Shown one piece after another: positions 14,728-64,000 of a stretch of 64,000 nucleotides of DNA. Source of the stretch: a virus (taxonomy: Duplodnaviria > Heunggongvirae > Uroviricota > Caudoviricetes); the IMG/VR virus record IMGVR_UViG_3300037067_019759; one strand, given 5' to 3'. A program made the translations under genes and the position numbers. Each line of letters starts with the position of its first letter. The stretch's first letter is position 1. The notes beneath the pieces were generated by a model. It ran no database searches. It saw only the letters and a list, made by a program, of their open reading frames with translations, and had not been told where the DNA came from.

Positions 14728-14734
14728 GAAATAA

Positions 14735-36302: not shown

Positions 36303-36917
36303 TTATTTTTCTTTATAAGCAAATTTACCATAATATTTTTGTTCAGCTTCTTTACGAGCATTAATAGCATCTTGTTCTTCTTTGAAATAACCTAAATTAA
36401 CTTTTATACTATTTATTTGAATATATGTTTCCCATCTTTTATATTGTTTATTCCAACAATATCCTTTACATTTTTTGTTCATTGAATTTTGTTGATGCGT
36501 AACAAATCTTAAATTACTTTTTCTATTATCTAAAGTATTTCCAAAACTATGGTCTACTTCATATCCTTTGGGTGGATTTCCAAATATTAAATGATGTAAA
36601 AAATATTTTTTTTTATTAATCGTTGTAATTATATATTTTTTACCTTTTTTTGCTCTTATCCCCCATTTATATCCCTTAATTTTCTCCAAGTCTTCTTTAT
36701 CTATCAATGCTCTTGCAACTTCTATTTGTTCCCCACTACCTTGATATAAACAAATCTCATAATAATCACCGCAGTCTATAATTTCATTAGGATCATATCT
36801 TGTTCTTTTTAATATTTTTCCATAAGTACGAAATTGTAAATAATGTCTTCCGCAGTATCCTTTTTCAAAATATTTATTTTCACAATTATCAACTTTACAT
36901 TTTTTTCCTTCTAACAT
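36303..36917 (-). CDS. HNH-AP2 homing endonuclease
   Basis: CKVDNCENKYFEKGYCGRHY zinc motif. HHLIFG...YEVDHSFGNTLDNRKSNLRFVTHQQN (HNH_3). C-terminal WETYIQINSIKVNLGYFKEEQDAINARKEAEQKYYG (AP2 fold). Confidence 0.6.
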   Translation of the reverse strand: MLEGKKCKVDNCENKYFEKGYCGRHYLQFRTYGKILKRTRYDPNEIIDCGDYYEICLYQGSGEQIEVARALIDKEDLEKIKGYKWGIRAKKGKKYIITTINKKKYFLHHLIFGNPPKGYEVDHSFGNTLDNRKSNLRFVTHQQNSMNKKCKGYCWNKQYKRWETYIQINSIKVNLGYFKEEQDAINARKEAEQKYYGKFAYKEK

Positions 36918-37043
36918 AAATTTTATAAATAAAAGCCCAGAATCTATTAGTAACCTGTTGAGAAAACTAATAGAATATCCGGGTTTTTATTTCAACAGGT
37001 TAATTAACTCCTTCCATTATATCATACTTTTATTATTTGTCAA
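36918..37043 (-). promoter_or_regulatory. Promoter (TTGACA-16-TATAAT) plus 5'-UTR pseudoknot cassette upstream of HNH-AP2 gene 36303-36917
   Basis: Minus strand: -35 at 37038-37043, -10 at 37016-37021. Stem 1 is 36993-36999 with 36954-36960 (CCTGTTG/CAACAGG). Stem 2 is 36977-36992 with 36927-36940. The two stems are interleaved. Confidence 0.5.
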
Positions 37044-37203
37044 TACTTACGCTAATCCTTCCCTCGCAAAGGGCAACGTCATCGGCTTTGCTAGATATTT
37101 CCTGCATTATATTTCAAATGCTATCGGTTTTTACGCCTAATATCCGCCATGGCTTGGCCGAGAGGAGATCCAAAGACCTCACGTTGCCCTATGCCAAGAA
37201 ATA

Positions 37204-37461
37204 TTATTCCTTACGTTCTTCATCTTTATAACCACAATGGGGGCATTTCCAATTATTCCATAAATCCTTACTTTTCTTCGGCACGAAATCTAATTTTGTC
37301 TTTTCACCGCATTTACTGCAAATAACTTCTGGTAAATTTAATCTTCCTTCCTTTAGTGCCTTGTTATAATTATCTTTATAACACTTCATTGTACAAAATT
37401 TTTTTCTATTGCGGATAGTATAAAACTTTTGGCCGCAGCCTAAACATAGTTTGGTGTGCAT
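37204..37461 (-). CDS. Small zinc-ribbon protein
   Basis: CLGCGQKF...CSKCGEKT...CPHCG. Three CxxC pairs. Confidence 0.4.
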   Translation of the reverse strand: MHTKLCLGCGQKFYTIRNRKKFCTMKCYKDNYNKALKEGRLNLPEVICSKCGEKTKLDFVPKKSKDLWNNWKCPHCGYKDEERKE

Positions 37462-37565
37462 GGTACCTCCTATGGTTAATTTAATATAATTTTAATAATA
37501 ATAACAGATACTATTATCGCCGTTAATAATATGGCGAGTATGATGATGGGATCGGTTTGCCACAT

Positions 37566-37931
37566 TTAGATACCGGCACTGTTACTAAGCTCCGCCAATA
37601 ATCCACGTTGTAGAAATTTTAATGAACCAATATACATCTCAATATTTGAAAGTTCACCTTTTGCGATAGCAGATTCTCTATATTGGTCGGTATCTCTAAT
37701 AAGAATATCACATTTAGCTACGCTTATAGGTTTTAAAGTTGATTCATCGATTGAATTGGCAGTTTCCACATAGCGTTTATTAAGTTTTTCTTCTTTAGAG
37801 ATTACGATTAAATTAGCATCGGCATAATATTGGGCAAGTCTGCAAATCAATATTCCTACATCCTCCGGACTAATGGCTGTTTTTTTATAATTATTTACGA
37901 ATTCATTAAATTCTTCTTGGTACGTTGGCAT
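37566..37931 (-). CDS. Hypothetical protein
   Basis: ORF only. Confidence 0.3.
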   Translation of the reverse strand: MPTYQEEFNEFVNNYKKTAISPEDVGILICRLAQYYADANLIVISKEEKLNKRYVETANSIDESTLKPISVAKCDILIRDTDQYRESAIAKGELSNIEMYIGSLKFLQRGLLAELSNSAGI

Positions 37932-37944
37932 AAGATTATTTTAA

Positions 37945-38721
37945 TTAATTATTATTGTTATTAGTATATTCCCCGAAATATGTCTGTTCAGCCTTTTTGC
38001 GAGCATTGATAGCGTCTTGTTCATTGATAAAATATCCTAAAAAAATAGATTTATGGTTTGTTGTTATTCTTACCCTCCATTTATTATTTGATTTATGCCA
38101 AGAATATCCTTTACTTTTGTTATTCATTCCATTTTGACTTCGTGTAGCAAATCTTAAATTTTGTTTTCTATTATCTAAAGTATTATGATTAATATGATCT
38201 ATTTCATACCCTATTAATGGTTTACCTAAAATTAGATGATGTAAAAATAACATTTTTTTTGTGTAAATAGTTTGTATGTTAGTTATTACGTAACCTTTAT
38301 TAAGACCCCATATATATACTTTAACTTTTTCCAAGTCTTCTTTATCTATTAATGCTCTGCCAACCTCTTTATGTTTTACATTATAAAGATAAATTTCATA
38401 ATGATTGTTGCAGTCTATTATTTTATTTTTATCTTTGATTGTTCTTTTTAAAATTTTTTTGTATTTTTTAATTTGTGCATAATGTTTCATGCAATATCCA
38501 CATCTTCCATGATTTTTCCAGTATGAACTTCTATTGCATTCTTCCACCTTACATATTCTATTTTTTCTTTTCTCTTTTTCTTTTGTCCGTTGTTCATCCA
38601 TTATTTTTCCATATTTTTGCATTTGTTGATAATGTTTACAACAATATTTGTTATGTCCATTATCTTTAAATAATGAACTATTTTCACAACTACTTACCTT
38701 ACACTTTTTGTACGTTTCCAT
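37945..38721 (-). CDS. HNH-AP2 homing endonuclease (duplicated N-terminal zinc motif)
   Basis: CKVSSCEN...CCKHY and CKVEECNR...CMKHY. HHLILGKPLIGYEIDHINHNTLDNRKQNLRFATRSQN. C-terminal AP2-like segment. Promoter and pseudoknot leader upstream. Confidence 0.6.
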   Translation of the reverse strand: METYKKCKVSSCENSSLFKDNGHNKYCCKHYQQMQKYGKIMDEQRTKEKEKRKNRICKVEECNRSSYWKNHGRCGYCMKHYAQIKKYKKILKRTIKDKNKIIDCNNHYEIYLYNVKHKEVGRALIDKEDLEKVKVYIWGLNKGYVITNIQTIYTKKMLFLHHLILGKPLIGYEIDHINHNTLDNRKQNLRFATRSQNGMNNKSKGYSWHKSNNKWRVRITTNHKSIFLGYFINEQDAINARKKAEQTYFGEYTNNNNN

Positions 38722-38867
38722 ATACTTTTCCTATAACACAAATCCCATCAACAAGAACAGCTAGTTACCCGCAAAGATAATTGTTGCTATTCTACGTTAA
38801 TGGGATTTGTGTCTTTGCGGGTTATAAATTATATCACCAGTATACCAAAAGTATATTAAGTTGTCAA
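38722..38867 (-). promoter_or_regulatory. Promoter (TTGACA-17-TATACT) plus 5'-UTR pseudoknot upstream of HNH-AP2 gene 37945-38721
   Basis: -35 at 38862-38867, -10 at 38839-38844. Stem 1 is 38813-38821 with 38768-38776 (CCCGCAAAG/CTTTGCGGG). Stem 2 is 38800-38812 with 38746-38758 (ACACAAATCCCAT/ATGGGATTTGTGT). Confidence 0.55.
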
Positions 38868-38871
38868 ATTA

Positions 38872-39201
38872 TTATATCACAATCCAGTCCCCTCCATTCG
38901 TATCACCTTCGCTCACTACCCAATTATAAAATTTATCATCTTCTTTGTGTAACATTAAATATCCGTCTTTCATTAATCCATAAATATTTTTATTACCCCA
39001 TTCCACTTTAGTGACTTTTTTCCCATCAATAACCTCTCGGATAGCAGCACTAAACCCCATTTCTTCGTCAATTAGCACCTCATCGAACTCTTCTTTAACT
39101 ACTTCGGTAGGAAGTACGTCGGATGGCAAAGGACTACGTGAAATTTTGTTTTCCATAGATTTTAATTTAGTTAGTAAATTTTTAAAGTATTCAGTTAACA
39201 T
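38872..39201 (-). CDS. Hypothetical protein
   Basis: ORF only. Confidence 0.3.
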   Translation of the reverse strand: MLTEYFKNLLTKLKSMENKISRSPLPSDVLPTEVVKEEFDEVLIDEEMGFSAAIREVIDGKKVTKVEWGNKNIYGLMKDGYLMLHKEDDKFYNWVVSEGDTNGGDWIVI

Positions 39202-39208
39202 ATGTTAA

Positions 39209-39802
39209 TTAATTGTTTTTATATGCGAATTCGCCGAAATAACGTTGGCGAGCTTCTTGAGCTACTTTGGCGGCGGTTTGTTCATTTTCGAAACGACCTA
39301 AATTAATTTCTTTTTTATTTATTTTTATTCTTACTTGCCAACAATTATTATCCCATTTATATCCTTTACATTTTTTATTCATCCCATTTTGACTTCTAGT
39401 GGCAAATCTTAAATTTTTTTTTCGGTTGTCAAATTTGTCATGGTTAATATGATCTATTTCATATCCTTCTTTTTTTCCTAAAATTAATTGATGTAGTTTT
39501 GTAGTATAATTTTTTTTTCTTGTAGATACGTAACCTCTACTTAAATACCACTTATATCCTTTAATTTTTTCTAAATCTTCTTTATCTATTAATGTTCTGC
39601 CAACTTCTTCATGTTTTCTATTATATAGACAAATCTCATAATAATCATCACAGTCTATAATTTCATTTGGATCAAACATTGTTCTTTCTAAAATTTTTCC
39701 ATGTTGTTTTATTTGTTGATAATGTTTACAACAATATCCTTTTTTTAAATATTTTTGTTTTTTTCCACAATTAGTTACCTTACATTTTTTAAACGTCTCC
39801 AT
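39209..39802 (-). CDS. HNH-AP2 homing endonuclease
   Basis: CKVTNCGKK...CCKHY. LHQLILGKKEGYEIDHINHDKFDNRKKNLRFATRSQN. AP2-like C-terminus. Promoter and pseudoknot leader. Confidence 0.6.
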   Translation of the reverse strand: METFKKCKVTNCGKKQKYLKKGYCCKHYQQIKQHGKILERTMFDPNEIIDCDDYYEICLYNRKHEEVGRTLIDKEDLEKIKGYKWYLSRGYVSTRKKNYTTKLHQLILGKKEGYEIDHINHDKFDNRKKNLRFATRSQNGMNKKCKGYKWDNNCWQVRIKINKKEINLGRFENEQTAAKVAQEARQRYFGEFAYKNN

Positions 39803-39937
39803 ATACTTTTGTCCTCAACACAAAACCCAGTCTCCTAACAGCCAACCTTCAGAGAAAGCCGTTATTTAACTGGGTTTTGTGTCTGAAGGTTAATTAAATT
39901 ATGAACCCAGTATACCAAAAGTATTTTAAGTTGTCAA
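39803..39937 (-). promoter_or_regulatory. Promoter plus 5'-UTR pseudoknot upstream of HNH-AP2 gene 39209-39802
   Basis: -35 at 39932-39937, -10 at 39909-39914. Stem 1 is 39883-39889 with 39846-39852 (CCTTCAG/CTGAAGG). Stem 2 is 39870-39882 with 39818-39830. Confidence 0.55.
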
Positions 39938-42039
39938 ATAACAATAACACTACTATTCCCATTTAACTTAGTTACTTCTATACGTTCCTCAAAAATATCC
40001 TTAATTTCCTGTAGGTGACTTATCACTAGCAACTGTTGTGTTTCTTCTTTAAGTTTTAAAATCACTTCTGCGAATGAAGACACCATTTCGCTATCAAGAC
40101 CTGTTATTGATTCATCAAGAATTCTCCAACCAAATCTTTGAAGCCCGCCCAGACCTTCATGGATAGCAGTTAAAATTTTACATTTTTCTCCGCCGCTAAA
40201 ATTTGAAAGTTCCATCTCCTCATTTTGATCGTTGATAATATTTAAAAATAAGCCCTCCACTAATTTTTCTCCATCTGCGCTAGATCGTTGAGTATCAATG
40301 TGAATTTTTAAGTCTGATAATTTACTGAGCACTTTATTAATTTTATCTTCTAATTCTGGTACAAGGTAATCTATAACCATAGCTTTGACCCCGTTTGGAG
40401 ACAGTGCCATTTTAAGTAGTTCTAATGCCTCTATTTTAATATCAAGGTCATTAGCGCTACCCTCTATCCTTTTAAGACTTTCCTCGCTAGAAACAGCGCG
40501 TAGCACAGCATTTTTAGCCAAGGATGCCCCTTCCACAACTAACCTCAACTCCATTTCTATCTTAAACTTTTCACCATTCAACTCCATCTCCTGTTTCTTA
40601 ATATCCTCACTTCCCATTATTTCAACCATTAACGCTTGTATTTCCGCGATTAACACTGTTATTTTACCTTCTTTCTCTACTTTTTCCGCTTCTTTAGCAG
40701 TTATTTTCTCCTGAAAAGTAGTCTTTCTTAAATCTCTAGTGTTGATAATATTGTTTATATTAACCAATTTCTGTTCCTTATTGTAAATATCAACTTCCAA
40801 CGCCCTTATTTTGCTACTATCAACTGCCGGACGTTCTCCCAACGCTTTTACTTTGATTTCGTACTCTTCAAGTCCTTTGTTATAATCAATTCTAGCTTGG
40901 TTTGTGTCGGCTAGAACGCGTTCTAATCGCTTAGAGGTACTATCTACCGTCTTAGGCGCAAATTTATGTCCACACTGAGGGCATTGCTCCTGCGGATATG
41001 TCATCAATTCAATCAGTTGTTTGTTGATTTCCGCTATTTCTTTATCAAAATCTCTAGTAACCGGCTTATCCTTCATAATATCCAGCATTTTGACGTTCCA
41101 TTCGTTGCCAATAGTTTCTACCACCTTTAATCCATTCAGTTCCGCTTTTAAAGAACTTATATCCCCTACCTCCGCTTGCATCGCGGTTATATCCATCTCG
41201 TCAATCTTTTTTATTTCATTTTTAAAAGTGTTTATCTCAATATCAATTATTTGGATTGATTGCTTGGTAATGTTTAATTCTCGTTCTTTTTCCGCTTTAC
41301 TGGTAATTTTAAAATCTATATTGGCTAATTGAGAGGTAATTGATTTTAGATTGGTGTTAACTATTTCTAACTTTGCTTTTATTTCTTGCTCTTGTATTTC
41401 CAGAGTTGGCAAATTGGCGGCGACTTGTCTGTCGGCGATGAGGGATTGGTTAATAATGACCGAGTTGCTTTCGTTATTTGATTTTTCTTGCTCAAATTCA
41501 GATAATTTTTCCTTGGTTTGTTTTAGGTAGGTGTCTAGATCGTTGATATTTACTATTTGCAAGAGTAAATCTTTTCTGGCAGAAGCTGGCAAATCAGTAA
41601 ACGATTCATTGTTAGCTTGGGGTGACACTACAGAATTAACAAACAATGTATAGGAACAATGGAGTATCTGTTTTTCTAGATATTCTTGAGTAGTTTTTAA
41701 TCCTGATATTTGTAGGGGTTTATATGCTTTATCTCCGTCTTTAATATGAATTTCTAATGAATTTTTACCTTTTGAGTCCACGCCTCGTTCTATTCGGTAT
41801 GTCAAGTTATCGTCCGTAAAAGTAAGCAACACAGAACATGCTTTTTTGCTTTTTTTAATTAAAAAACGATTGTCTACTCGACCTTTGCCGTAAAATGCAA
41901 ATATTATCGCTTCCACAAGCGAACTCTTACCAGAACCGCTAATTCCAGTAATTGCTATCTTACAATTTTTTTCAAAATCAATGGAAGTAGATGAATGAGA
42001 TAGAAAATTATTTAGTTTTAGACTCTGGATCAATATCAT
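39934..42039 (-). CDS. sbcC: SbcC/Rad50-like SMC-family ATPase (recombination nuclease complex, large subunit)
   Basis: Walker A GISGSGKSSLVEAIIFAFYG. Long coiled-coil middle. C-terminal signature LSGGEKCK plus a Walker B-like ILDES.TGLDSE. Confidence 0.6.
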   Translation of the reverse strand: MILIQSLKLNNFLSHSSTSIDFEKNCKIAITGISGSGKSSLVEAIIFAFYGKGRVDNRFLIKKSKKACSVLLTFTDDNLTYRIERGVDSKGKNSLEIHIKDGDKAYKPLQISGLKTTQEYLEKQILHCSYTLFVNSVVSPQANNESFTDLPASARKDLLLQIVNINDLDTYLKQTKEKLSEFEQEKSNNESNSVIINQSLIADRQVAANLPTLEIQEQEIKAKLEIVNTNLKSITSQLANIDFKITSKAEKERELNITKQSIQIIDIEINTFKNEIKKIDEMDITAMQAEVGDISSLKAELNGLKVVETIGNEWNVKMLDIMKDKPVTRDFDKEIAEINKQLIELMTYPQEQCPQCGHKFAPKTVDSTSKRLERVLADTNQARIDYNKGLEEYEIKVKALGERPAVDSSKIRALEVDIYNKEQKLVNINNIINTRDLRKTTFQEKITAKEAEKVEKEGKITVLIAEIQALMVEIMGSEDIKKQEMELNGEKFKIEMELRLVVEGASLAKNAVLRAVSSEESLKRIEGSANDLDIKIEALELLKMALSPNGVKAMVIDYLVPELEDKINKVLSKLSDLKIHIDTQRSSADGEKLVEGLFLNIINDQNEEMELSNFSGGEKCKILTAIHEGLGGLQRFGWRILDESITGLDSEMVSSFAEVILKLKEETQQLLVISHLQEIKDIFEERIEVTKLNGNSSVIVI

Positions 42040-42328
42040 TTGTTTTATTTATTAATTGGTAAATTACAGAGCTCGTATCTTCCGGACCAAAAATATTATT
42101 TTTATCTTCTAACCATTCCATTGCTTTTTGTTTTTCTTTTTCATCAAAAAATTTTATAGTTTTTAATTGTTGTTTTACTGTTTCTTTTGCTTTATTTATA
42201 TTTTTTTTAGATAATATCCAATTTAACCACGGAGGAATAAGCGCGATAGAAATAACAATATCTTCGTTACATTCTGGACATTTGACATTATACATTAATT
42301 TAATTGTTTCATCTTTTTCTTTTGACAT
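42008..42328 (-). CDS. Small zinc-ribbon protein
   Basis: CPECNEDIV motif. ORF overlaps the sbcC start. Confidence 0.3.
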   Translation of the reverse strand: MSKEKDETIKLMYNVKCPECNEDIVISIALIPPWLNWILSKKNINKAKETVKQQLKTIKFFDEKEKQKAMEWLEDKNNIFGPEDTSSVIYQLINKTNDIDPESKTK

Positions 42329-42340
42329 AATATATTTTAA

Positions 42341-43090
42341 TTAATTTTTTATATAAGCAAATTCACCAAAATATTTTTGTTCAGCTTTTTTACGAGCGTT
42401 GATGGCATTTTGTTCATTGATAAAGTATCCTAAAGTAATTTGTTTATGGTTTATATAAATTTGTACTTTCCATTTTTTTACATCCTTAACCCAAATATAT
42501 CCTTTTGATTTTCTATTCATTGAATTTTGACTATATGTGACGAATCTTAAATTTTGTTTACGATTATCTAATGTATTATGGTTAATATGATCAATATTAT
42601 ATCCCCTTAATGGTTTTCCTAAAATTAAATGATGTAATAATATAATTTTTTTATTTTTTATTGTCATCACATATCCAAAATTATTTAAACACCATTTATA
42701 TCCCTTAATTTTATCTAAATCCTTTTTATCTATTAACGCTCTACCAATTTCTTTATGTTTTACGTTATATAAACATATCTCACGATAATTTCCGCAATCT
42801 ATAACTTCATTAATATCAAATTTTGTTCTTTTTAATATTTTTTTATATTGATATATTTGTGATTGATGTTTATTACAAAAACCATTAGCACCGCCTTTTT
42901 TATAATAAGAACTATTATTACAATTCTTTACTTTACATACTTTGTTCATTCTTTTTTCTTTTTCTTGTTTCTTTTGTTCATCTATTATTTTTCCATATCT
43001 CCATATTTGCATGTAATGAGAAATGCAATATCCTTTACTACGATATTTATTTTCACAATTTTTTACTTTACATTTTTTAAATATTTCCAT
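42341..43090 (-). CDS. HNH-AP2 homing endonuclease inserted between sbcD and sbcC
   Basis: Two CxxC...H zinc motifs. HHLILGKPLRGYNIDHINHNTLDNRKQNLRFVTYSQN. AP2-like C-terminus. Promoter and pseudoknot leader. Confidence 0.6.
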   Translation of the reverse strand: MEIFKKCKVKNCENKYRSKGYCISHYMQIWRYGKIIDEQKKQEKEKRMNKVCKVKNCNNSSYYKKGGANGFCNKHQSQIYQYKKILKRTKFDINEVIDCGNYREICLYNVKHKEIGRALIDKKDLDKIKGYKWCLNNFGYVMTIKNKKIILLHHLILGKPLRGYNIDHINHNTLDNRKQNLRFVTYSQNSMNRKSKGYIWVKDVKKWKVQIYINHKQITLGYFINEQNAINARKKAEQKYFGEFAYIKN

Positions 43091-43228
43091 ATTTTTGCTA
43101 ACACAAAACCCATCTATCGCTTGGCTATACCGACTAAGATATAATTTGCCATTAAATAAATGGGTTTTGTGTCTTAGTCGGTTATTAAGTTATGTATCTA
43201 TCGTAGCAAAAGTATATTAAGTTGTCAA
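43091..43228 (-). promoter_or_regulatory. Promoter plus 5'-UTR pseudoknot upstream of HNH-AP2 gene 42341-43090
   Basis: -35 at 43223-43228, weaker -10 TACGAT at 43200-43205. Stem 1 is 43173-43181 with 43130-43138 (CCGACTAAG/CTTAGTCGG). Stem 2 is 43160-43172 with 43101-43113. Confidence 0.5.
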
Positions 43229-43230
43229 AT

Positions 43231-43578
43231 TTATATTATATTTTCTTTTTTTAACATCTTCAAAAGTTCATAAAAATCATTTTTATTCATAGTTATAAAT
43301 TCTCCTACTGATACTACTTTTGTAAACACTATATTATAGTTACTATCTTGTGGCATTTCCATTAAAACATGAGTAGGATTGCCAAATTTATTTTTACATT
43401 TTGCTTGTACTGAAAAAGGTATAGTATTACAAAGATCTATTTTTTTGCTATCAGTATTTCTACTTTCTGCGCGAGCAGTAACACAATCATGCCAACCTAG
43501 TTCTCTAAATTCTTGAGCTAATTGTCTTTCATAATTATTTCCTCTGTTTCGTACTCCTGCACCTCCTTTATGAATCAT
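43231..43578 (-). CDS. Small nuclease-like protein (Hjc/RecU-type Holliday-junction-resolvase-like PD-(D/E)xK candidate)
   Basis: RGNNYERQLAQEFRELGW...ARAESRNTDSKKIDL...FSVQAKCK matches the G-ER-L-L-G...D...Q-K pattern of archaeal-type resolvases. Not verified. Confidence 0.3.
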   Translation of the reverse strand: MIHKGGAGVRNRGNNYERQLAQEFRELGWHDCVTARAESRNTDSKKIDLCNTIPFSVQAKCKNKFGNPTHVLMEMPQDSNYNIVFTKVVSVGEFITMNKNDFYELLKMLKKENII

Positions 43579-43584
43579 ATAAAA

Positions 43585-44604
43585 TTATTTTATCAAGTTA
43601 AAAGCAAAGTTGAGTTTATCTAGCGGCACATTTTTCTCTCTACTATATAATTCGAGCAAATTGTTTATTCCAAAGTCCATCATCTCTCCTTGCTTTATAT
43701 TATGTATTTTTTTTCTTTCGGTTGTTATATTTTCTAATATCATATTTGCGTCAAATCTTTCAAGTGTCGTCTTTATTTTATCTATATCTTTTTTTGCTTC
43801 TGCGGTGGTTATCGTCACCTTCACTATCGAATTGGCAGGGAGTTCTTCTAGGTCGGCAACAGTTGGATTTTCTAATCCATAAATACCGCGTCCTGGTAAT
43901 GCTATTTGTTTTATTTCTAAAGTATTTTCATCTAAAATATGAATATATTTTTGGATTTCTCCTACTTCGTTATTTATAATAGATCCATTTACTATCACAT
44001 TATTAGATAAAATACTATTTTTATGAATGTGTCCTCCAAATACAAATTTATATTTTTTTGATAATTCTTTCCAAGGCAATACAATTTCGTCAAAAAAATT
44101 AGTATTACAACCAGACGTTGTTTTACTGTCAGACATTGAAAAATGATGAAAAAGAAAATCACCCTCTGGCAACATTTTAATTAATTTTTTAGTTGCTGAA
44201 ACATTATCTTTACAATTTAAAAAATTTTTTGTGATATATGGAGCAAATACAAAATTTTTTATTTTTTTAGGTTCTTTAGTTATAACATTCCATTTTTTGT
44301 CAAGAATTTCATTAATATAATCTAATGCCGTTTCTCCATTATCTTTTAAACAGTGGTTTCCTGATATTATGAATATTTCTTTATCTTTAAATTTTTCAAG
44401 AAATGATGTAAATTCTTTTATAGTTTCTGACAATGGATTTTTTACATTAAAAATATCACCTAAAAAAATTATTTTTTCACAGTTTTTAAACGAATCAACA
44501 ATAAAATTTAATATTTCTTCTTTTTCTGATATTCTTTTATCTTTAATATATTCAGAATATCCTAATTTTTGGAGATGCAAATCTCCGAGTATACCAGTTA
44601 ACAT
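43585..44604 (-). CDS. sbcD: SbcD/Mre11-like calcineurin-fold nuclease
   Basis: GDLHLQ, IIFLGDIFN, ISGNHC, FGGHIHK are metallophosphoesterase motifs I-V. Confidence 0.65.
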   Translation of the reverse strand: MLTGILGDLHLQKLGYSEYIKDKRISEKEEILNFIVDSFKNCEKIIFLGDIFNVKNPLSETIKEFTSFLEKFKDKEIFIISGNHCLKDNGETALDYINEILDKKWNVITKEPKKIKNFVFAPYITKNFLNCKDNVSATKKLIKMLPEGDFLFHHFSMSDSKTTSGCNTNFFDEIVLPWKELSKKYKFVFGGHIHKNSILSNNVIVNGSIINNEVGEIQKYIHILDENTLEIKQIALPGRGIYGLENPTVADLEELPANSIVKVTITTAEAKKDIDKIKTTLERFDANMILENITTERKKIHNIKQGEMMDFGINNLLELYSREKNVPLDKLNFAFNLIK

Positions 44605-45109: not shown

Positions 45110-45910
45110 TTATTTAATCACATTTAGAAACGGAACCGCACCTCCTGGAATCATAGCCGCTGGCACCTCTCCTTTCCATTTTTCAATCGCTTTCATCTGT
45201 ACTTCTAATGCTTTCAACTGGACATACTTGTCATTATTTGCTGCTTCCGACTGTAATTTAATTGCCTCTGCTTCTGCTCTTGCTTGTGCTACTCTTTGCT
45301 CGGCTTCGGTTTTTATTCTATCCAAATCATTCTTGGCTTTTAAAGCATTTTGCTGGGCTACCTGTTTTTGTTCAACTGCTTTTTCATATTCATCACTAAA
45401 ATCAAAGTTAGCGATAGAAAATTCATCAACACTAATATTCCAAGTGCTTAATCTGTCTTTTAAAGATGTCTTAATCCCCTCTTTAACCTTTGGTCTTTCT
45501 TCAATCAATTCTTGGGCATTAAATTGGGCTGTTATCGCTTTTACACTTTCTTGGATAGCTGGTTGAATTATAGTGTCTACAAAATTAGTACCTACTTTTT
45601 GATAAACATTATTCACTCCCTCTGGCAATAAGTGGTAATTTAAAGCAATTTTAGAGTTGACTGTCTGGATATCCTTGGAGTAAGTAGCCACTTCTACCTC
45701 AATTTTTTGAGTACGCACATCCATTTTATGCACTTGCTGCTTAATAGGCACCACCCAATGTATTCCTTCATTTAAAACTTTATCACTAACTGCTCCCCAA
45801 TTAGTTACCACTCCTCGGTAACCTGCTTTTACAATCACCATCGGATTGATAATCAGGAATAAAATAAATGCCACTGAGATTATTATTCCTGCTACAACTT
45901 TTTTTGTCAT
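45110..45910 (-). CDS. SPFH/band-7 (stomatin/prohibitin-like) membrane-associated protein
   Basis: N-terminal TM. VIVKAGYRGVVTNWGAV...NEGIHWVVP. C-terminal Ala/Glu-rich coiled coil EAEQRVAQARAEAEA. Confidence 0.55.
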   Translation of the reverse strand: MTKKVVAGIIISVAFILFLIINPMVIVKAGYRGVVTNWGAVSDKVLNEGIHWVVPIKQQVHKMDVRTQKIEVEVATYSKDIQTVNSKIALNYHLLPEGVNNVYQKVGTNFVDTIIQPAIQESVKAITAQFNAQELIEERPKVKEGIKTSLKDRLSTWNISVDEFSIANFDFSDEYEKAVEQKQVAQQNALKAKNDLDRIKTEAEQRVAQARAEAEAIKLQSEAANNDKYVQLKALEVQMKAIEKWKGEVPAAMIPGGAVPFLNVIK

Positions 45911-49255: not shown

Positions 49256-49377
49256 ACACAAAACCCATCCGCCTAGTGGCAACCTATCAGAGTTAATCCA
49301 CTAAAAGCAAATGGGCTTTGTGTCTGATAGGTTATAAATTATATAACCAGTATACCAAAAGTATATTAAGTTGTCAA
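49256..49377 (-). promoter_or_regulatory. Promoter plus 5'-UTR pseudoknot upstream of HNH gene 48580-49083, with an additional roughly 165-nt leader
   Basis: -35 at 49372-49377, -10 at 49349-49354. Stem 1 is 49324-49331 with 49283-49290 (CCTATCAG/CTGATAGG). Stem 2 is 49311-49323 with 49256-49268. Confidence 0.5.
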
Positions 49378-50688
49378 ATATTTATTATTTTTAATAATTT
49401 TTAATAAATCATTAACTAAGTTATCTTGTTGTTTTTTTAACAAATTTTCTTTCTTTTTTTCATCGCTTATTCTAAAAGTAAATAAAGGTTTGTTTGTTAT
49501 AATTCCCACCTCAGTTTCTATTCTATCTCTAAATCCGTCATCCTCTTTGGTAATAATAATGGTTTCTGGTCTGCCTAATTTTTTGATTGTATCAGTACAG
49601 TCAACAACTAAAAAATTTTTTTTACTTGGATGGGGACGAAAACCGCGACCAATCATCTGGTACAACAATGCCAACGAAATAGTTGGTCTAGCTAAAATTA
49701 TACAATCAAGTTCTGGAAAATCAAAACCGAGCGTAAGGACTTTAACATTTATTACGATTCTATTTTTACCGCTTTTAAAATTATTTATTATCTCATCTCT
49801 TTCCCCTGCTGGCGTATGTCCAAATACCATTTCATTGCCAAAACTATTCTCTTGCAATAACTTGCTTAATTCATTTGCTTGTCGTATTGATGATGCAAAA
49901 ATTAAAAAATATTTACGTTCATTATAATATTTTGCTACTGAATATAATACTTTTTTAAGACGACTGGGATTGGTAGTATAATTTTCCAAACTTTCACTAT
50001 CAAAATCATTACCAATTGAATTCATTTTTATTTCTTCTGATTTAAAATTAGGATCAGGAAATACGTATGTTGGTTTGGCTAAGTAGCCTTGTTCAATTAA
50101 TTCATGGTTTTCAATTTTATAAATTATATTTTTAAAGAAAAATGGATGAATTCTATTAAGCATTTGCAGGTGTCCAGTATAAAATAAATCATTTCCTTTC
50201 TTAGTATATTTATTTACTATTCTGTATGGCGTGGCTGTGAGTCCAACAATGTGAGGATCGCCAATAGCTCTAAAAAATTTATTGTACATGCCATCTATAT
50301 TTTTTGGTGAATACAGATGCGCTTCATCAATTAAAATAACTTTAAAGTGTTTGAATAGTTCAGGCTTTTTATATATTGAACCGATTGTTGCGTAAGTAAA
50401 TCGTCCTATCTTTTTAGAATTAAAACTGGCTGAATATATTTTAATATCATTAAAACCATACATCAGCATCTTATCATAATTTTGCTGTAATATTTCTTTA
50501 GTTGGTTGTAAAATTAAAATATTATCATTAATTTCATGAGCTATGCCTGAAATTACATGTGATTTACCTCCACCTGTCGGAATAGATATAATGCCAGCGT
50601 TATTTTGGGTTTTTAAATACTCAACACCTTTGGCAACAGCTATTTTTTGATAAGTTCGCAATTCCATAATTCTTCTAATTAATGTCAC
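49366..50688 (-). CDS. Superfamily-2 DEAH-box DNA helicase
   Basis: PTGGGKSHV (motif I). ILIDEAH (II). GLTATP (III). QMIGRGFR (VI). Confidence 0.6.
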   Translation of the reverse strand: MTLIRRIMELRTYQKIAVAKGVEYLKTQNNAGIISIPTGGGKSHVISGIAHEINDNILILQPTKEILQQNYDKMLMYGFNDIKIYSASFNSKKIGRFTYATIGSIYKKPELFKHFKVILIDEAHLYSPKNIDGMYNKFFRAIGDPHIVGLTATPYRIVNKYTKKGNDLFYTGHLQMLNRIHPFFFKNIIYKIENHELIEQGYLAKPTYVFPDPNFKSEEIKMNSIGNDFDSESLENYTTNPSRLKKVLYSVAKYYNERKYFLIFASSIRQANELSKLLQENSFGNEMVFGHTPAGERDEIINNFKSGKNRIVINVKVLTLGFDFPELDCIILARPTISLALLYQMIGRGFRPHPSKKNFLVVDCTDTIKKLGRPETIIITKEDDGFRDRIETEVGIITNKPLFTFRISDEKKKENLLKKQQDNLVNDLLKIIKNNKYLTT

Positions 50689-55418: not shown

Positions 55419-55643
55419 CCCCATGCTTTGGGAATCCGTGTTGTGTGCTTATTAACACTCGGCATTATCAGTATAGCGTGAATCCGTTTTTTGTCAATAC
55501 AAAAGGCCATCTTCAAAAGATGACCCTAGTGCGTCCCACTCATGGAGGGAACTAAAATACAATACAATTTAATTTAGTTAGGTTGAAAATCCTTTTCTCG
55601 TTTCTATAATATTAATTTGTATAGCGTCCAGTATCGAGTATGT

Positions 55644-55713
55644 GGGGATGGCAGGTTTGCGACATACCTGGTTATCCAGCCCGGAGTCAGGGGTTCAATT
55701 CCCCTCATCTCCA
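55644..55713 (+). other. tRNA-like fragment: acceptor stem plus canonical T-arm without a valid D or anticodon arm
   Basis: GGGGATG pairs with CATCTCC (one G-U). T-arm AGGGG-TTCAATT-CCCCT. Discriminator A. The middle folds as a 4-bp tetraloop hairpin instead of an anticodon arm. Confidence 0.35.
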
Positions 55714-56336
55714 CATGCTCTTAAAACTAGACATTACAAATGTTGTTAAGTTAAATACCATTATACCACTTTTTAATAATATGTCAATACTTTGGATTTA
55801 TGGTATAATGGGGATATTATTAAATAATATGAAATGTATGCAAAATGAAGAGTATTTTTCGACGAGGGACATCTCGTTGGCCGCGACACTTTTAACGCTT
55901 AAATTTAAAATGGTTGGATTAGATATGCAATATGAAGGAACAGTATCTCGACCAGTTGGTTATTTTTTATTTCAACGCACAGAAGATGTACTCGAAACAG
56001 AAAAAAAATATTGGGCGAGATCTCTGGCTATCGAACCCATGTTGTACCAAACACATTTAAAGAGTTTGAAGGCGCAAGTAATGAATGTGTATAAGTCTCC
56101 CCAAAGTGGATATAATAAAAAATATAAGACATATTAAGGGGTTGACTTTTCCCAGGATTTTGCTTATACTGACAATAGATAATAAAAATTGAATATATGC
56201 TCAAAAAACAAATTCATAAACAAAGAATCCTTACTAATGGTTCATGCCACAAAGGCATGGCAGTCACGAATTTGTACTGTTGAGCAACTATTGGTAAGGT
56301 TTTTTTGTTTATTTTTGATTAATTAACTATAAAAAT

Positions 56337-57374
56337 ATGCAACACAAAGAACATCATTTCATTGTGGAAGAAGCCACAAAATATGGAGTAGAAAAAGCTA
56401 TTCTACTCTACAATATTAGATTTTGGCTAGATAAAAATAAAGCTAACGATAAACATATCCACCAACATTCAAACGGAAAATATTATTATTTTACTTATAA
56501 TAGCGGTACAGCATTTGGAAAATTATTTCCCTATATGAACGCTAAAAGCATAAATAGATGGTTATTGGAACTAGAAAACGATGGTATTCTAATAAGCGGA
56601 AATTTTAATAATACTTCGTATGATAGAACAAAATGGTACTCTATTATCCAAGAATTTGAATATAATGAGAAATCCATTACGCTAGATGAGAAATCCATTA
56701 CGCTAGATGAGCAATCAAATACGCTAGATGAGCAATCAAATACGCTAGATGAGCAACCAATACCAGATAATAATACACATAATAATACAAATAATAATAC
56801 TCTCTCTTGTGCAGCTGACGCTGCACCAGACATCAAAAATGAAACTGACTCTACCAATCTCTTTATTGATACTCCCCCTCCAGTTTCTGAACCCACGGAT
56901 CTAAAGCCCAAGAAAGACAAACAGACAATGACAGAAGAAGACTTTGGTAAATTTTGGAATATCTACCCCAGAAAAAAAGGAAAGGGAGATGCGTTAAAAA
57001 AATTTCTTAAAATTAATAAAGATAAATTTGATGTTATTATAAAAGCAGTGGGAGAATGTAAAAAAACTAAACAATGGCAGGATGTACAGTATATACCGTT
57101 CCCTGGTACTTGGTTAAACCAAGAAAGATGGGAGGATGAATCTTCATCCACGGATTATATTGCCTTAAGTGGCGAAGAACAAATATTGGCAAGACAGAAG
57201 GTAGATGATTCCTACCAAAGGGGAGAGATAACTATCGAAGATGTGGCGAGAGCTTATGTTGCTATAAGTAATGATACTTTAGAAACCGGCCATTGCTACG
57301 CTATTTTCCCTTTTTCTACAAAATACGGAGATCAAATGCTACTAAAACTCAAGAATCTGTTCCCCAACTTTTAA
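56337..57374 (+). CDS. Replication initiator / replisome-organiser-like protein with origin iterons inside the gene
   Basis: N-terminal winged-helix-like domain. Four 21-bp tandem repeats followed by an AT-rich tract inside the ORF (lambda O-like arrangement). Primase-helicase immediately downstream. Confidence 0.4.
   Translation: MQHKEHHFIVEEATKYGVEKAILLYNIRFWLDKNKANDKHIHQHSNGKYYYFTYNSGTAFGKLFPYMNAKSINRWLLELENDGILISGNFNNTSYDRTKWYSIIQEFEYNEKSITLDEKSITLDEQSNTLDEQSNTLDEQPIPDNNTHNNTNNNTLSCAADAAPDIKNETDSTNLFIDTPPPVSEPTDLKPKKDKQTMTEEDFGKFWNIYPRKKGKGDALKKFLKINKDKFDVIIKAVGECKKTKQWQDVQYIPFPGTWLNQERWEDESSSTDYIALSGEEQILARQKVDDSYQRGEITIEDVARAYVAISNDTLETGHCYAIFPFSTKYGDQMLLKLKNLFPNF
56667..56750 (+). repeat. 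Four direct 21-bp iterons (2x GAGAAATCCATTACGCTAGAT, 2x GAGCAATCAAATACGCTAGAT) plus a degenerate fifth. Candidate replication origin.
   Basis: Exact tandem copies read from the sequence, followed by AT-rich 56757-56805 (ATAATAATACACATAATAATACAAATAATAATAC). Confidence 0.5.
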
Positions 57375-57394
57375 CCATTGGTATTGTCCGTGGT

Positions 57395-57430
57395 ATCTGT
57401 TCCGAAATTATTATAATATAAAAGTTAATT
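57395..57430 (-). promoter_or_regulatory. Possible minus-strand promoter antisense to the 3' end of gene 56337-57374
   Basis: Minus strand TTGACAagaattaacttttatatTATAAT with no gene downstream on that strand. Could be an antisense RNA or non-functional. Confidence 0.25.
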
Positions 57431-57664
57431 CTTGTCAATTAAATGGTTAAATCACAGAGGGCAGTTCCGTTTTTTAGACGGCTAAAATGGTACATACCCA
57501 TTTTAAGCCGTGTGGAGTGCCTTTAAAACGTAGTTGCTAGTCGAGACGGTAGATTAGACCTTTAAGGGGTGCAACGCGTGTTTAAGACATCACCATCAAT
57601 GACAGAATGGCAAGGAATTGATTCTATCGCTCGACTGCAGTCGTAAAATTATAAATTTAAAACC

Positions 57665-59344
57665 ATGCTTAACAACCTCACAATCAACAAATTAGATTCG
57701 CTCCTTGGCAAGGCAGAGTTAAGCGTGGAAGCGTCAAGAGAAGAATTACGAACGGCCGCTATCGGTTATTGCAAGAAAAATATATCCGTAATACCCGTGG
57801 CGAAAGACAAGAAACCCCTAGTAAAATGGCAAGAGTTCCAGACTAGGCGCGCTAATGAGCAGGAAATAAATAAATGGTTCAAACAATTTCCCGACATGCA
57901 GATAGCAATAGTTTGCGGAAAAATTTCCGGGTTGATAGTCGTCGACATAGACAAACCGGATATGGATTTATCTTGGTTGCCAGAAACGTCAATCATAAAA
58001 ACAGGGTCGGGAGGATTTCATTATTACTATAAATATTGTCCGGGCGTTAATAACAAGGTGCGGATTAAAGATTATATTGACTTGAGAGGGGATGGCGGTT
58101 TTGTGATCTGCCCCCCCAGCGTAAATTTAAAAGGAAAATATGAAATTATAAATAGAAAAAATTTAGCGTCATTCCCAATTAATCTTTTTTCTCAAAATAT
58201 AGATCTGTTAGCATATCGGCAATCATACCAAGGCGATTATATCGGTTACGGTCAAGGTGAACGGAACGACCAGATGACGAGGTGGATTGGTCATTTATTG
58301 GCAAAAATACATCCGTCCGAATGGGAGAGTATCGCTTGGAACGCGGTGGTTGACGCTAACGCTAAAAATATTCCTCCGCTTGGAGAGGGAGAATTACGGT
58401 CTATTTTTAATAGTATATCCGGCAAGGAGCGTAATAATACTACCGAACGTTGGTATAAAAAAGCGGAAGATGAAAAAATAAATTTAATCGTTAAGAATGA
58501 TTACAAGAGTCGTTATACTTGGGGCACGAATGAATTAGATAGTCATTTCGCGATTATCAAACGAGGAAATTTTATTATAATCGGCGCACGAAGAAATTCT
58601 GGAAAAACTGTTTTTTCGTTTGACATGGCGTTTAAAAATGCTTTGCTTGGGCATAATGTTCTTTATTTATCGCTTGAAATGGACGAGGAAAAAATACTTT
58701 CCGATTTTGCTCGCAAGTATGCTGGGATTAGCATTGAGGAGGAATATAATTATTTGATACCGGATTATAAACAGCAAGCGTTCCAACGGAAAATAGCGGA
58801 AATAAAATCAGTCGGTAATTTATATTTTCGCGGGATGCGGCGAGGCAATGGCACAACTTGGAATATTATCGTTAAAAAGATAAATGAGTTTTCGGATTTG
58901 GATTTAATTTTTATTGATAATTTGGATTTGATTGACGGCGAGGTAAAGGAGAACGATTTTGACAGACAGAAAAGAATTTCCAAGTTGATAATGAATTTTA
59001 CGGAGGAGAAGAAAATACCAGTGGTGTTAATCCATCATCATCGCAAAATACAAGCGAAAGATTTCGGCGCGGATGAATTAGCAGGGTCGGGAAAGATAGC
59101 TGACAACGCTGATATAATTTTAAAAATTCAGAGGAATGATGATCCCAATTCTGTCTATCCTGAAAAATATAAAAGTAAGTTGTTTCAACAAAAAGGTCGT
59201 GGATATGGCGAGGCAAGTTGCAGTATATATTTTGTTAGAGGTACTTTTTGTGATACTTATCCGTCAGTACCTCCAAATTGGGACGAACCAACAGAAGAAG
59301 AAATTAAAAAAGCCCAAGAGAAAATGAGTTGGGCTGATAAATAA
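57665..59344 (+). CDS. Bifunctional primase-polymerase (Prim-Pol) N-terminal domain fused to a DnaB-like replicative helicase ATPase
   Basis: VIPVAKDKKP..VKWQEFQ...IAIVCGKISGLIVVDID is a Prim-Pol signature. GARRNSGKTVFSFDMA...LYLSLEMDE is DnaB-type Walker A/B. Confidence 0.6.
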   Translation: MLNNLTINKLDSLLGKAELSVEASREELRTAAIGYCKKNISVIPVAKDKKPLVKWQEFQTRRANEQEINKWFKQFPDMQIAIVCGKISGLIVVDIDKPDMDLSWLPETSIIKTGSGGFHYYYKYCPGVNNKVRIKDYIDLRGDGGFVICPPSVNLKGKYEIINRKNLASFPINLFSQNIDLLAYRQSYQGDYIGYGQGERNDQMTRWIGHLLAKIHPSEWESIAWNAVVDANAKNIPPLGEGELRSIFNSISGKERNNTTERWYKKAEDEKINLIVKNDYKSRYTWGTNELDSHFAIIKRGNFIIIGARRNSGKTVFSFDMAFKNALLGHNVLYLSLEMDEEKILSDFARKYAGISIEEEYNYLIPDYKQQAFQRKIAEIKSVGNLYFRGMRRGNGTTWNIIVKKINEFSDLDLIFIDNLDLIDGEVKENDFDRQKRISKLIMNFTEEKKIPVVLIHHHRKIQAKDFGADELAGSGKIADNADIILKIQRNDDPNSVYPEKYKSKLFQQKGRGYGEASCSIYFVRGTFCDTYPSVPPNWDEPTEEEIKKAQEKMSWADK

Positions 59345-59351
59345 TAAAATT

Positions 59352-60191
59352 ATGAATATACTATCAGAGTATCAAAAATTTTGCGAGAATGAAGGAATTT
59401 TTTTAAAAGTAGATAATAACGTGAAGTCTTATGATGACACAACATTATTTTGTCCCGCGGGGATGCAACAATTCAAGGATAAATTTATCGACAAGAGTTA
59501 TAAGGGGACGATTGCTAATGTTCAAAGTTGCATTAGGTTAAATGATTTTGACGAGATTGGCGATGGAACGCATTTCGCTTATTTCAACATGCTTGGGTTG
59601 TTCTCTTTCAGAGAATTATCAGTTAAACAAACAATTAATCTTTTTTTAAAATTTATAAAAAATTTAGGATTAAAGATTGATTACGCGACAATTCATCCTG
59701 ATAAAAGAGATTGGAAATATTATTATCCTGATTATATGCCATTAAAAAATGATGATGATTGTAAATGGACGGATGGCAAAATTGGCGGTTATTGCACGGA
59801 ATTTTATGTTGACGGCATAGAAATTGGGAATATAGTTAATCCGCTCGGAGATTGTATTGATGTTGGTTTTGGATTAGAAAGATTAGACATGCTAGTTAAT
59901 GGTAAAAAACAAAAGAGTAGAATTGAATTATTAAAAGAGTGCGCTTTAAAAATAATAGAAGCCGGTTTTAAGCCGAGTAATCTAAAACAAGGATATGTTT
60001 TAAGAAAAATTTTAAGAGAAATATATAAAAGTGGTGAAGTTTTGGATCATCAATATTTTAAAGATGAAATAGAGAGGCAGAAAATAATAAAAAATAGATA
60101 TGAAAAATTAAAAAATAAAAATAAAGATAAAACTAAGGAGTGGTGGTTTGATACTCATGGGATAGATTTAGAAGAAGTTAATAACAAATAA
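59352..60191 (+). CDS. Hypothetical protein
   Basis: ORF. Confidence 0.3.
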   Translation: MNILSEYQKFCENEGIFLKVDNNVKSYDDTTLFCPAGMQQFKDKFIDKSYKGTIANVQSCIRLNDFDEIGDGTHFAYFNMLGLFSFRELSVKQTINLFLKFIKNLGLKIDYATIHPDKRDWKYYYPDYMPLKNDDDCKWTDGKIGGYCTEFYVDGIEIGNIVNPLGDCIDVGFGLERLDMLVNGKKQKSRIELLKECALKIIEAGFKPSNLKQGYVLRKILREIYKSGEVLDHQYFKDEIERQKIIKNRYEKLKNKNKDKTKEWWFDTHGIDLEEVNNK

Positions 60192-63747: not shown

Positions 63748-64000
63748 ATGGATTACTCACAAGAAACAAAAGACCTTATAGACCGTATATGTCGCAATGT
63801 AGAACGCGAAGATTTTAAATTAAATAAGGAAAAAGCAGGTGAATGCTTAATGAAAACTTATGATTTATTTAATTTAAAACGTCCAAAAAAAGTTGTGTGG
63901 TGTATAGATATTTTTGATAAAAAATTTCAAAACGCGGCGCGGTCGGCGCGGTCGGCGCGGTCGGAGGGGTCGGCATGGTCGGCATGGTCGGCGCGGTCGG
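63748..64000 (+). CDS. Partial CDS running off the window. C-terminal part is an (ARS)n repeat encoded by a GC-rich 9-bp tandem repeat.
   Basis: ATG at 63748. Frame stays open through CGGCGCGGT repeats to the window end. Confidence 0.3.
   Translation, partial: MDYSQETKDLIDRICRNVEREDFKLNKEKAGECLMKTYDLFNLKRPKKVVWCIDIFDKKFQNAARSARSARSEGSAWSAWSARS
63931..64000 (+). repeat. GC-rich 9-bp tandem repeat CGGCGCGGT (variants CGGAGGGGT, CGGCATGGT), at least 7 copies, truncated by the window end
   Basis: Read directly. Sharp compositional contrast with the surrounding AT-rich DNA. Confidence 0.7.

Follow-up and report, generated by a model that had tools for sequence, protein, structure and literature searches.

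A candidate replication origin within the initiator gene of a Caudoviricetes phage

In the annotation of bacteriophage lambda, the iterons are located inside gene O, and the O protein recruits the host helicase DnaB through P. The gp38 protein of SPP1 binds the oriL repeats inside gene 38, beside an A/T-rich unwinding element (PMC6316719). Rep of plasmid pSK41 binds four Rep boxes in the central part of its own gene; the linker encoded by this region is dispensable, and the C-terminal domain of the protein binds primase (PMC5703833). The iterons recognized by RepA_N proteins are inverted repeats that converge on an A-tract (PMC7145576). Here we describe a locus of similar layout in the Caudoviricetes record IMGVR_UViG_3300037067_019759. 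The stretch analysed, referred to as the window, comprises 64,000 nt with an A+T content of 67.5% (G+C ~32%). Its open reading frame (ORF) 56337-57374 encodes a replication initiator and contains a tandem array of 21-bp repeats followed by an A/T-rich tract, and the next gene encodes a primase-helicase. We consider it likely that the repeats and the A/T-rich tract inside the initiator gene are the replication origin of this phage, or one of its origins.

Repeats, box and A/T-rich tract in the initiator gene and its family

An initial annotation of the window had placed four 21-bp iterons in tandem inside ORF 56337-57374, with an A/T-rich stretch directly after them. Both features were recovered here, together with a partial fifth unit. 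Two copies of GAGAAATCCATTACGCTAGAT (56667-56687 and 56688-56708) are followed head to tail by two copies of GAGCAATCAAATACGCTAGAT (56709-56729 and 56730-56750), and the partial unit GAGCAACCAATAC (56751-56763) comes directly after the four full ones. Tandem Repeats Finder (TRF) reported the array at 56665-56760 with a period of 21, 4.6 copies and 94% matches. The motif at the junction of two units, TACGCTAGATGAGMAATC, occurs four times in the window, every time inside the array; 0.03 occurrences were expected from shuffled sequences, and at least four were found in 0 of 100 shuffles. No second iteron site was present in the window outside the array. As the spacing of 21 bp corresponds to two helical turns, all iteron sites lie on one face of the DNA.

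The array encodes residues 111-142 of the 345-residue initiator, a part of its linker. At the junction of the iterons and the A/T-rich tract lies a box, CCAATACCAGAT, which encodes PIPD. The tract itself consists of three A/T-rich 12-mers, CAGATAATAATA, CACATAATAATA and CAAATAATAATA, encoding residues 143-155, and the A+T content over 56766-56801 is 86%. As is general for theta origins of the iteron type, three or more helically phased direct repeats of ~17-22 bp thus stand beside an A/T-rich element. A search for DnaA boxes (TTATCCACA with at most one mismatch) gave 24 matches in the window, compared with 20.8 expected, and none in 56100-59400. Such boxes belong to the origins of many iteron plasmids, though not of every system.

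The array is not an assembly artefact, because independent contigs carry it. A contig from JGI (L089) has the same four junctions and the same number of units as the window. A contig from ENA (L084) is 100% identical over 2009 bp except that it has exactly one 21-bp unit fewer, with three full units at its positions 498-557 (protein P0001, 338 residues) instead of four. The difference could reflect natural variation or a collapse during assembly.

The layout resembles that of ori-lambda, where four iterons and then an A/T-rich region also lie in the middle of the gene, between the parts encoding the DNA-binding N-terminal domain and the C-terminal domain. The initial annotation had gone further and called the two architectures the same; the resemblance holds for the layout only. 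A lambda O homolog was rejected, as hhalign comparison of the family profile with lambda O gave a probability of 0.1% and Phage_rep_O was matched by 0 of 64 family members. The lambda iterons, each bound by an O dimer, are palindromes of ~18-19 bp with an irregular spacing of 20-24 bp, whereas those examined here are head-to-tail 21-mers without dyad symmetry. In addition, this phage has no adjacent P/DnaC-like gene and carries its own primase-helicase. SPP1 gp38/oriL shares the direct repeats in the initiator's own gene, the A/T-rich unwinding element and a downstream gene for a DnaB-family helicase (PMC6316719). SPP1 differs in its separate loader gp39, its use of the host primase and its second repeat site, oriR, which has no counterpart in this window.

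We then compared the corresponding DNA in relatives of the initiator. A search with the N-terminal domain among 1.84 billion representative sequences retrieved 8,253 clusters (50% identity) at E<=1e-3 and 3,997 at E<=1e-10, and 528 stretches in IMG/VR encode family members. The 3,997-cluster family spans phages of Proteobacteria, Bacteroidota and Firmicutes, with cultured members infecting Vibrio, Psychrobacter, Pseudomonas, Flavobacterium, Bacteroides, Lactobacillus, Bacillus and Staphylococcus. It is thus a large family, and one without a Pfam model. In 80 IMG/VR loci plus relatives, the DNA between the motif YDRTKWY, which marks the end of the N-terminal domain, and the PIPD motif was examined, leaving 65 non-redundant loci. 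Direct repeats with a score of at least 12 were regarded as strong, and coding sequences of the same length upstream (N-terminal domain) and downstream, plus codon shuffles, served as controls.

Strong direct repeats were found in 39 of the 65 linkers, as against 0/65 upstream and 0/65 downstream. The period was 22 bp at 23 loci, 44 bp at 11 and 21 bp at five, so that 34 of the 39 periods are not multiples of three. Since a period of 22 bp shifts the reading frame with every copy, it does not produce a repeated peptide, indicating that the repeat is maintained as DNA. The repeats are phased with the PIPD-coding box and have the 22-bp consensus TGGATTTGCC(C)AAAATGGC(A)AA, in which TTTGCC-CAAAAT-GGCAAA represents inverted repeats that converge on an A-tract. 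With its period of 21 bp the window is in the minority, and its units have only a skeleton in common with the family consensus, namely the start T..A, an ATG at about position 14-16 and the final AA.

The box was conserved as nucleotides across 62-70 non-redundant genes, with CCTATACCAGAT as the consensus. Among the codons for PIPD, Ile was ATA in 70/70 genes (background 40%), the first Pro was CCT in 60/70 and the second Pro was CCA in 68/70. The box adjoining the repeats, CCTATACCA, is thus kept at synonymous sites across the family, whereas YDRTKWY, which is equally conserved as protein in those genes, varies freely at such sites. The A+T content peaks at 0.78-0.86 between +10 and +30 nt after the box (65 loci), compared with a baseline of ~0.6. 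The order of iterons, box and A/T-rich tract is also present in Vibrio phage VH-8 and Lactobacillus phage phiLdb, and the linker layout is found in Bacteroides phages as well. At the sequence level, phased iterons, a box and A/T-rich 12-mers are a property of the family.

The closest relative is a 95.9-kb contig, L081, whose initiator is 83% identical in the N-terminal domain (91/110 residues). The primase-helicase of L081 is 86-90% identical and is encoded directly 3' of the initiator cassette of that phage. The 21-bp units of L081 are degenerate (TCCACGAGCAAAAATGGCGAA, TGGAACGGCAATACATGCGAA and TCAAACAGCAAAGTTTGCTCA) and have the skeleton T..A....ATG...AA in common with those of the window.

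The initiator operon and a proposed mechanism

The identification of ORF 56337-57374 as an initiator gene, made in the initial annotation, agrees with the PHROG profiles. The best matches were phrog_270 (E 1.6e-29, residues 48-273) and phrog_11233 (E 5.7e-21), both of which carry 'replication initiation protein' as an annotation label. Weaker matches were obtained with phrog_6493, 'DnaD-like helicase loader' (E 1.2e-11), and phrog_678, 'O-like' (E 1.3e-6). Pfam gave nothing at E<=0.1 and NCBIfam no match. When 64 family members were compared with Pfam, no RepA_N, Phage_rep_O or other replication family was found, only weak matches to generic winged helix-turn-helix models. Neither the single protein nor the family profile found anything relevant among PDB sequences, and the profile did not recover 4pql, 4pt7 or 5kbj.

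A structure was predicted with AlphaFold2 using 64 homologs. The N-terminal winged-helix domain (residues 1-112) was confident, with a predicted local distance difference test score (pLDDT) >92. It is followed by a disordered segment with a pLDDT of about 42 over residues 120-180, climbing towards residue 190. A helical domain at residues ~195-265 was again confident, and the C-terminal helices after it were less so. In this model the whole putative origin is predicted to fall within the disordered linker, which connects two folded domains. Among PDB structures, the best Foldseek matches of the N-terminal domain were RepA_N plasmid initiators, which bind iterons, although the similarity was modest. 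Judging from the model, the domain looks more like the winged helices of RepA_N and DnaD proteins than like lambda O, and the initiator may be a distant structural relative of RepA_N/DnaD.

The likeness to pSK41 Rep and other RepA_N proteins extends to the order of parts, with an N-terminal winged helix of ~110-120 residues, about four central in-gene repeats encoding a linker and a helical C-terminal domain, which in Rep recruits replication proteins (PMC5703833). Moreover, the family-consensus iterons converge on an A-tract as in RepA_N systems, which include PLE RepA of Vibrio cholerae (PMC7145576). On the other hand, neither this initiator nor 63 relatives match Pfam RepA_N (PF06970), the iterons of the window itself lack inverted repeats, and the C-terminal domain gave no DnaD-like match. 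RepA_N plasmids rely on the host DnaG and helicase, whereas the neighbour here is a phage-encoded Prim-Pol/DnaB fusion, and the element is a phage of the ~90-kb class rather than a plasmid. By analogy, the initiator appears to work like lambda O and RepA_N proteins without sequence membership in either group.

The gene downstream had been taken for a primase-polymerase/DnaB-like helicase, and both profile collections bear this out. Pfam detected Prim-Pol (residues 34-171, E 7e-24), PriCT_1 (residues 195-255) and DnaB_C (residues 287-512, E 1e-21), and PHROG detected a DnaB-like helicase (E 1.7e-35) and a DNA primase/helicase (E 4e-28). This primase-helicase is presumed to be loaded at the origin. 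A search of IMG/VR for its relatives found none; in JGI metagenomes the relatives were confined to the same phage, L081 and a locus of 29% identity with an unrelated upstream region. When the initiators of the window and L081 are compared, the middle of the C-terminal domain (residues ~200-270) is non-homologous, and the last ~60 residues are kept along with the primase-helicase. Taking into account that this tail is conserved between phages with the same helicase while the middle has been replaced, residues ~285-345 are perhaps the helicase contact, for which they are our candidate.

We propose the following mechanism. The N-terminal winged-helix domain would bind the four to five iterons, and the resulting nucleoprotein complex would distort the DNA and destabilize or open the box and the A/T-rich 12-mers. 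The Prim-Pol/DnaB-type primase-helicase of the phage, whose gene lies 290 bp downstream, would be recruited by the C-terminal part of the initiator and would then unwind and prime the DNA. The origin DNA would itself be translated as a disordered linker whose amino-acid sequence is of little importance, and a cis-acting site could for this reason sit in a coding region.

Upstream of the initiator gene, a promoter-like site has both hexamers kept in L081, and we infer that it drives the initiator operon. It is followed by a leader with an inverted repeat whose 27-nt arms are 85% complementary. The RNA fold of 56178-56345 has a free energy of -43.3 kcal/mol (z -5.25), and 0 of 200 shuffles folded as well. 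The leader is 86% identical in L081, where a C:G pair in the first inner hairpin is changed to U:A, in our reading at least one compensatory change. No match to Rfam was obtained for the leader. It is plausibly an attenuator controlling the synthesis of the initiator, being attenuator- or terminator-like in appearance.

Two perfect sigma70 consensus promoters (12/12, TTGACA-16/17-TATAAT) were observed on the minus strand, at 57438->57410 and 55787->55760; we estimate that chance would give ~0.01 such sites per 3 kb. The former faces the origin and points into the initiator gene at its 3' end, in antisense orientation, and the latter fires antisense across a small tmRNA-like element described below. 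An 11-12/12 promoter match precedes each of two terminator-like minus-strand hairpins, at 55413-55376 (16 pairs) and at 55527-55503, which suggests that short minus-strand RNAs of ~85 and ~250 nt may be made in this divergent control region.

Between the initiator and primase-helicase genes, the initial annotation had described a 230-bp GC-richer structured leader with no ORF. The lack of an ORF was confirmed (the longest is <=42 residues). The G+C content of the spacer (0.31-0.44) is akin to that of the neighbouring genes and not clearly richer, and its RNA fold is only moderately better than that of shuffles, with z values of -2.56 on the plus strand and -1.56 on the minus strand. Nothing was found in Rfam, either at the gathering score or at E<=1, and blastn and tblastx searches against the fetched loci, the rest of the window and the region of L081 at this position returned nothing except copies from the same phage. 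L081 has an unrelated 157-residue ORF there; having been replaced in this way, the spacer does not belong to the conserved parts of the replicon. A leader that is both strongly structured and conserved lies upstream of the initiator gene instead. The features of the locus are listed in Table 1.

Table 1. Features of the initiator locus, in window coordinates
Feature	Position	Strand	Basis
Promoter-like TTGACT-17-TATACT, initiator operon	56142..56170	+	Consensus scan, 10/12 matches
Structured 5' leader of initiator mRNA: long stem enclosing two hairpins, then U-run	56216..56312	+	Inverted repeat, RNA fold
Replication initiator gene, 345 aa; winged-helix aa 1-112, linker aa ~113-190, helical domain aa ~195-265, C-terminal helices aa 279-341	56337..57374	+	
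Iteron array, 4 full units + partial fifth	56667..56763		Sequence read, TRF, shuffles, homologs
Family-conserved box CCAATACCAGAT (consensus CCTATACCAGAT)	56757..56768		Synonymous-site conservation
A/T-rich tract, three 12-mers, candidate DNA-unwinding element	56764..56800		A+T content, family A+T peak
Intergenic spacer	57375..57664	+	No ORF >42 aa
Prim-Pol / PriCT_1 / DnaB_C (SF4 helicase) fusion	57665..59344	+	Pfam, PHROG

Weighing the origin against other explanations

The proposal of the initial annotation, that iterons and an A/T-rich tract in an initiator gene beside a primase-helicase gene are a candidate origin, is well supported by the PHROG matches, the position in the linker, the family repeats, the box and the A+T peak after it. 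The array exceeds chance expectation by far, and the RepA_N matches of the N-terminal domain, the lambda, pSK41 and SPP1 precedents and the variation in copy number by exactly one unit also speak for an origin. Several observations weigh against it. The A/T-rich tract is unexceptional, belonging only to the top ~5% of 36-nt stretches in this A/T-rich window, and another segment of the initiator ORF, 57001-57040, is slightly less stable. Dyad symmetry is absent from the units of the window (at most 5 of 10 positions match in a scan within the iterons), unlike the family consensus and lambda. At the score used, 26 of the 65 homologous loci have no strong repeat. As the units of L081 are degenerate, the perfect copies in the window look recently duplicated or homogenized, and the protein may not recognize the exact 21-mer. 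Recent homogenization agrees with the copy-number polymorphism of one unit, and it is probably the skeleton, not all 21 positions, that the initiator recognizes. On the protein side, the C-terminal half was confident when modelled separately, yet had no informative structural neighbour and no DnaD-like match. No helicase loader was identified, and no DnaC/P-like gene lies nearby. The literature searched gave no experimental binding, origin activity or mapping for members of this initiator family. Cumulative GC skew, a check put forward with the initial annotation, has its minimum at 56-57 kb. This position is consistent with an origin but does not discriminate. Genes are on the plus strand up to 35.5 kb, on the minus strand from 36 to 55.3 kb and on the plus strand again from 55.6 kb, and because the minimum coincides with the divergent switch in orientation at 55.3-55.6 kb, the skew is uninformative and was rejected as an origin test.

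The repeats could instead bind the initiator mainly for control, through autorepression, through titration or handcuffing, or as a fork barrier like SPP1 oriR, while replication starts elsewhere, possibly outside the window or by recombination-dependent priming. Plasmid iterons commonly have a control role as well, and SPP1 gp38 at the second repeat site, oriR, has been proposed to stall forks (PMC6316719). Since the contig of the relative is 95.9 kb, the window covers only part of the genome, and the SbcCD-like proteins (AAA_23/SMC_N and Metallophos) and superfamily 2 (SF2) helicase of a leftward operon would suit recombination-dependent replication. We nevertheless regard this explanation as unlikely, since the array directly adjoins the conserved box and the A/T-rich tract, a combination expected of an initiation site, since there is no further iteron copy in the window, and since in the characterized systems with the same layout (lambda, pSK41 and SPP1 oriL) the in-gene repeats are the origin. 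If replication started within the 290-bp spacer, whether at a structured single-stranded site used by the Prim-Pol for initiation or priming or at an RNA-primed origin, the iterons would serve only to position the initiator. In favour of this, the spacer lacks an ORF, resembles coding sequence in G+C content and folds with moderate stability, including a long-range stem. The perfect promoter at 57438->57410 is directed towards the iterons at a distance of ~650 bp, which recalls the transcriptional activation of ori-lambda. However, the z value of the fold is only -2.56, the absence of homologs leaves it without support from covariation, and L081 keeps both initiator and primase-helicase with an unrelated ORF in place of the spacer. 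We give this possibility very little weight.

Equally improbable in our view is that the array, lying in a low-complexity linker, is only a peptide repeat made by slippage, without a role as DNA. That the repeats merely encode a repeated peptide (EKSITLD/EQSNTLD) had been named in the initial annotation as an outcome that would count against an origin. The unit length, 21 bp, is divisible by three; copy 1 is identical to copy 2 and copy 3 to copy 4, and the copy number varies between contigs, as replication slippage predicts. The encoded segment is predicted to be disordered, and the nearest relative has degenerate units only. The family argues to the contrary. Periods at this position are mostly 22 or 44 bp, strong repeats are lacking from the coding sequences on either side (0/65 each), the repeats are phased with a box kept at synonymous sites, and the protein that contains them is a replication initiator according to the PHROGs. 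Returning to the reading of the array and tract as an origin, such an origin is of a known design, lambda-like in layout only, and belongs to a large initiator family without a Pfam model.

Further features of the window and implications

Two elements flanking the locus may concern alanine. At 55644-55716 on the plus strand lies a ~73-nt 'mini-tmRNA' consisting of the tRNA-like domain only. It scored 42.3 bits against the Rfam tmRNA model (E 8e-15; gathering score 47), and 19 nt stand in place of the 322 central positions of the model. Its acceptor stem, GGGGAUG/CAUCUCC, contains G3:U70, the alanine identity element, and A73 and a T-arm are present; there is no anticodon arm and no encoded CCA, and ARAGORN makes no call. 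A promoter-like site is found beside it at 55583-55610, and this promoter and the leader are ~95% conserved in L081, which carries tRNA-Ile(TAT) in the slot of the mini-tmRNA. As a precedent, a 'TLD only' tmRNA is known from mycobacteriophage DS6A, and trans-translation is inhibited by a similar molecule, which perhaps titrates SmpB (PMC4131195).

Downstream of the primase-helicase gene, 59352-60191 (plus strand) encodes a 279-residue protein that corresponds to the N-terminal catalytic core of alanyl-tRNA synthetase (AlaRS) only (Pfam tRNA-synt_2c, E 1e-20; TIGR00344, residues 24-155). It has no tRNA-recognition or editing domain and is absent from L081. When 50,697 phage records were searched with the nucleotide sequence of the locus, only the AlaRS-like gene of a 634-kb phage (LR745206.1) was matched; it is also the sole true homolog of the protein among those records, with 58% amino-acid identity. 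The homolog lies between tRNA arrays, with tRNA-Gly and tRNA-Ala(TGC) 190-480 bp downstream. The AlaRS-like protein and the mini-tmRNA with alanine identity, 3.6 kb apart, may form a phage module for alanylation or for interference with trans-translation.

The leftward operon (36303-44604, minus strand) encodes an SbcC/Rad50-like ATPase (39934-42039) and an Mre11/SbcD-like phosphoesterase (43585-44604), with three HNH_3 endonuclease genes (36303, 37945 and 42341) interspersed. It also codes for an SPFH/Band 7 protein (45110-45910) and the SF2 helicase (49366-50688). The regions 12540-17400 and 19986-20179 are extremely repetitive, with periods of 24, 36, 48, 54, 66, 90, 114 and 138 bp, and the plus-strand ORFs concerned are 11548-14727 (1059 residues), 14735-17683 (982 residues) and 19741-21846 (701 residues). 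In these regions the local G+C content is raised, the GC skew is inverted and long antisense ORFs are mirrored on the minus strand. Repeat-rich fibre or surface proteins are the probable products. Inside ORF 26748-29579, positions 27432-27610 contain 19.9 copies of a 9-bp unit, ACTGCACCT. A second 9-bp repeat, CGGCGCGGT (7.3 copies, 63935-64000), runs off the end of the window and is G+C-rich, which is odd for a genome of 32% G+C.

The locus presents a concrete, testable module of origin, initiator and primase-helicase for this phage. The argument that a repeat in a coding region is cis-acting DNA is here purely computational, drawing on periods that are not multiples of three, the phasing with the box and synonymous conservation. 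The signature, YDRTKWY followed by the repeats, CCTATACCAGAT and A/T-rich 12-mers, could serve for origin annotation in many metagenomic phages and could also provide compact cassettes of origin and initiator gene for vectors in genetically difficult hosts. More tentatively, the box, near-invariant in nucleotides, with lineage-specific 21- or 22-bp iterons phased onto CCTATACCAGAT and A/T-rich 12-mers after it, might be a universal grammar of in-gene origins, in which the box and not the iterons would be the conserved start of melting or helicase loading. If this is true, origins would be readable directly from the sequence in thousands of uncultured phage genomes.

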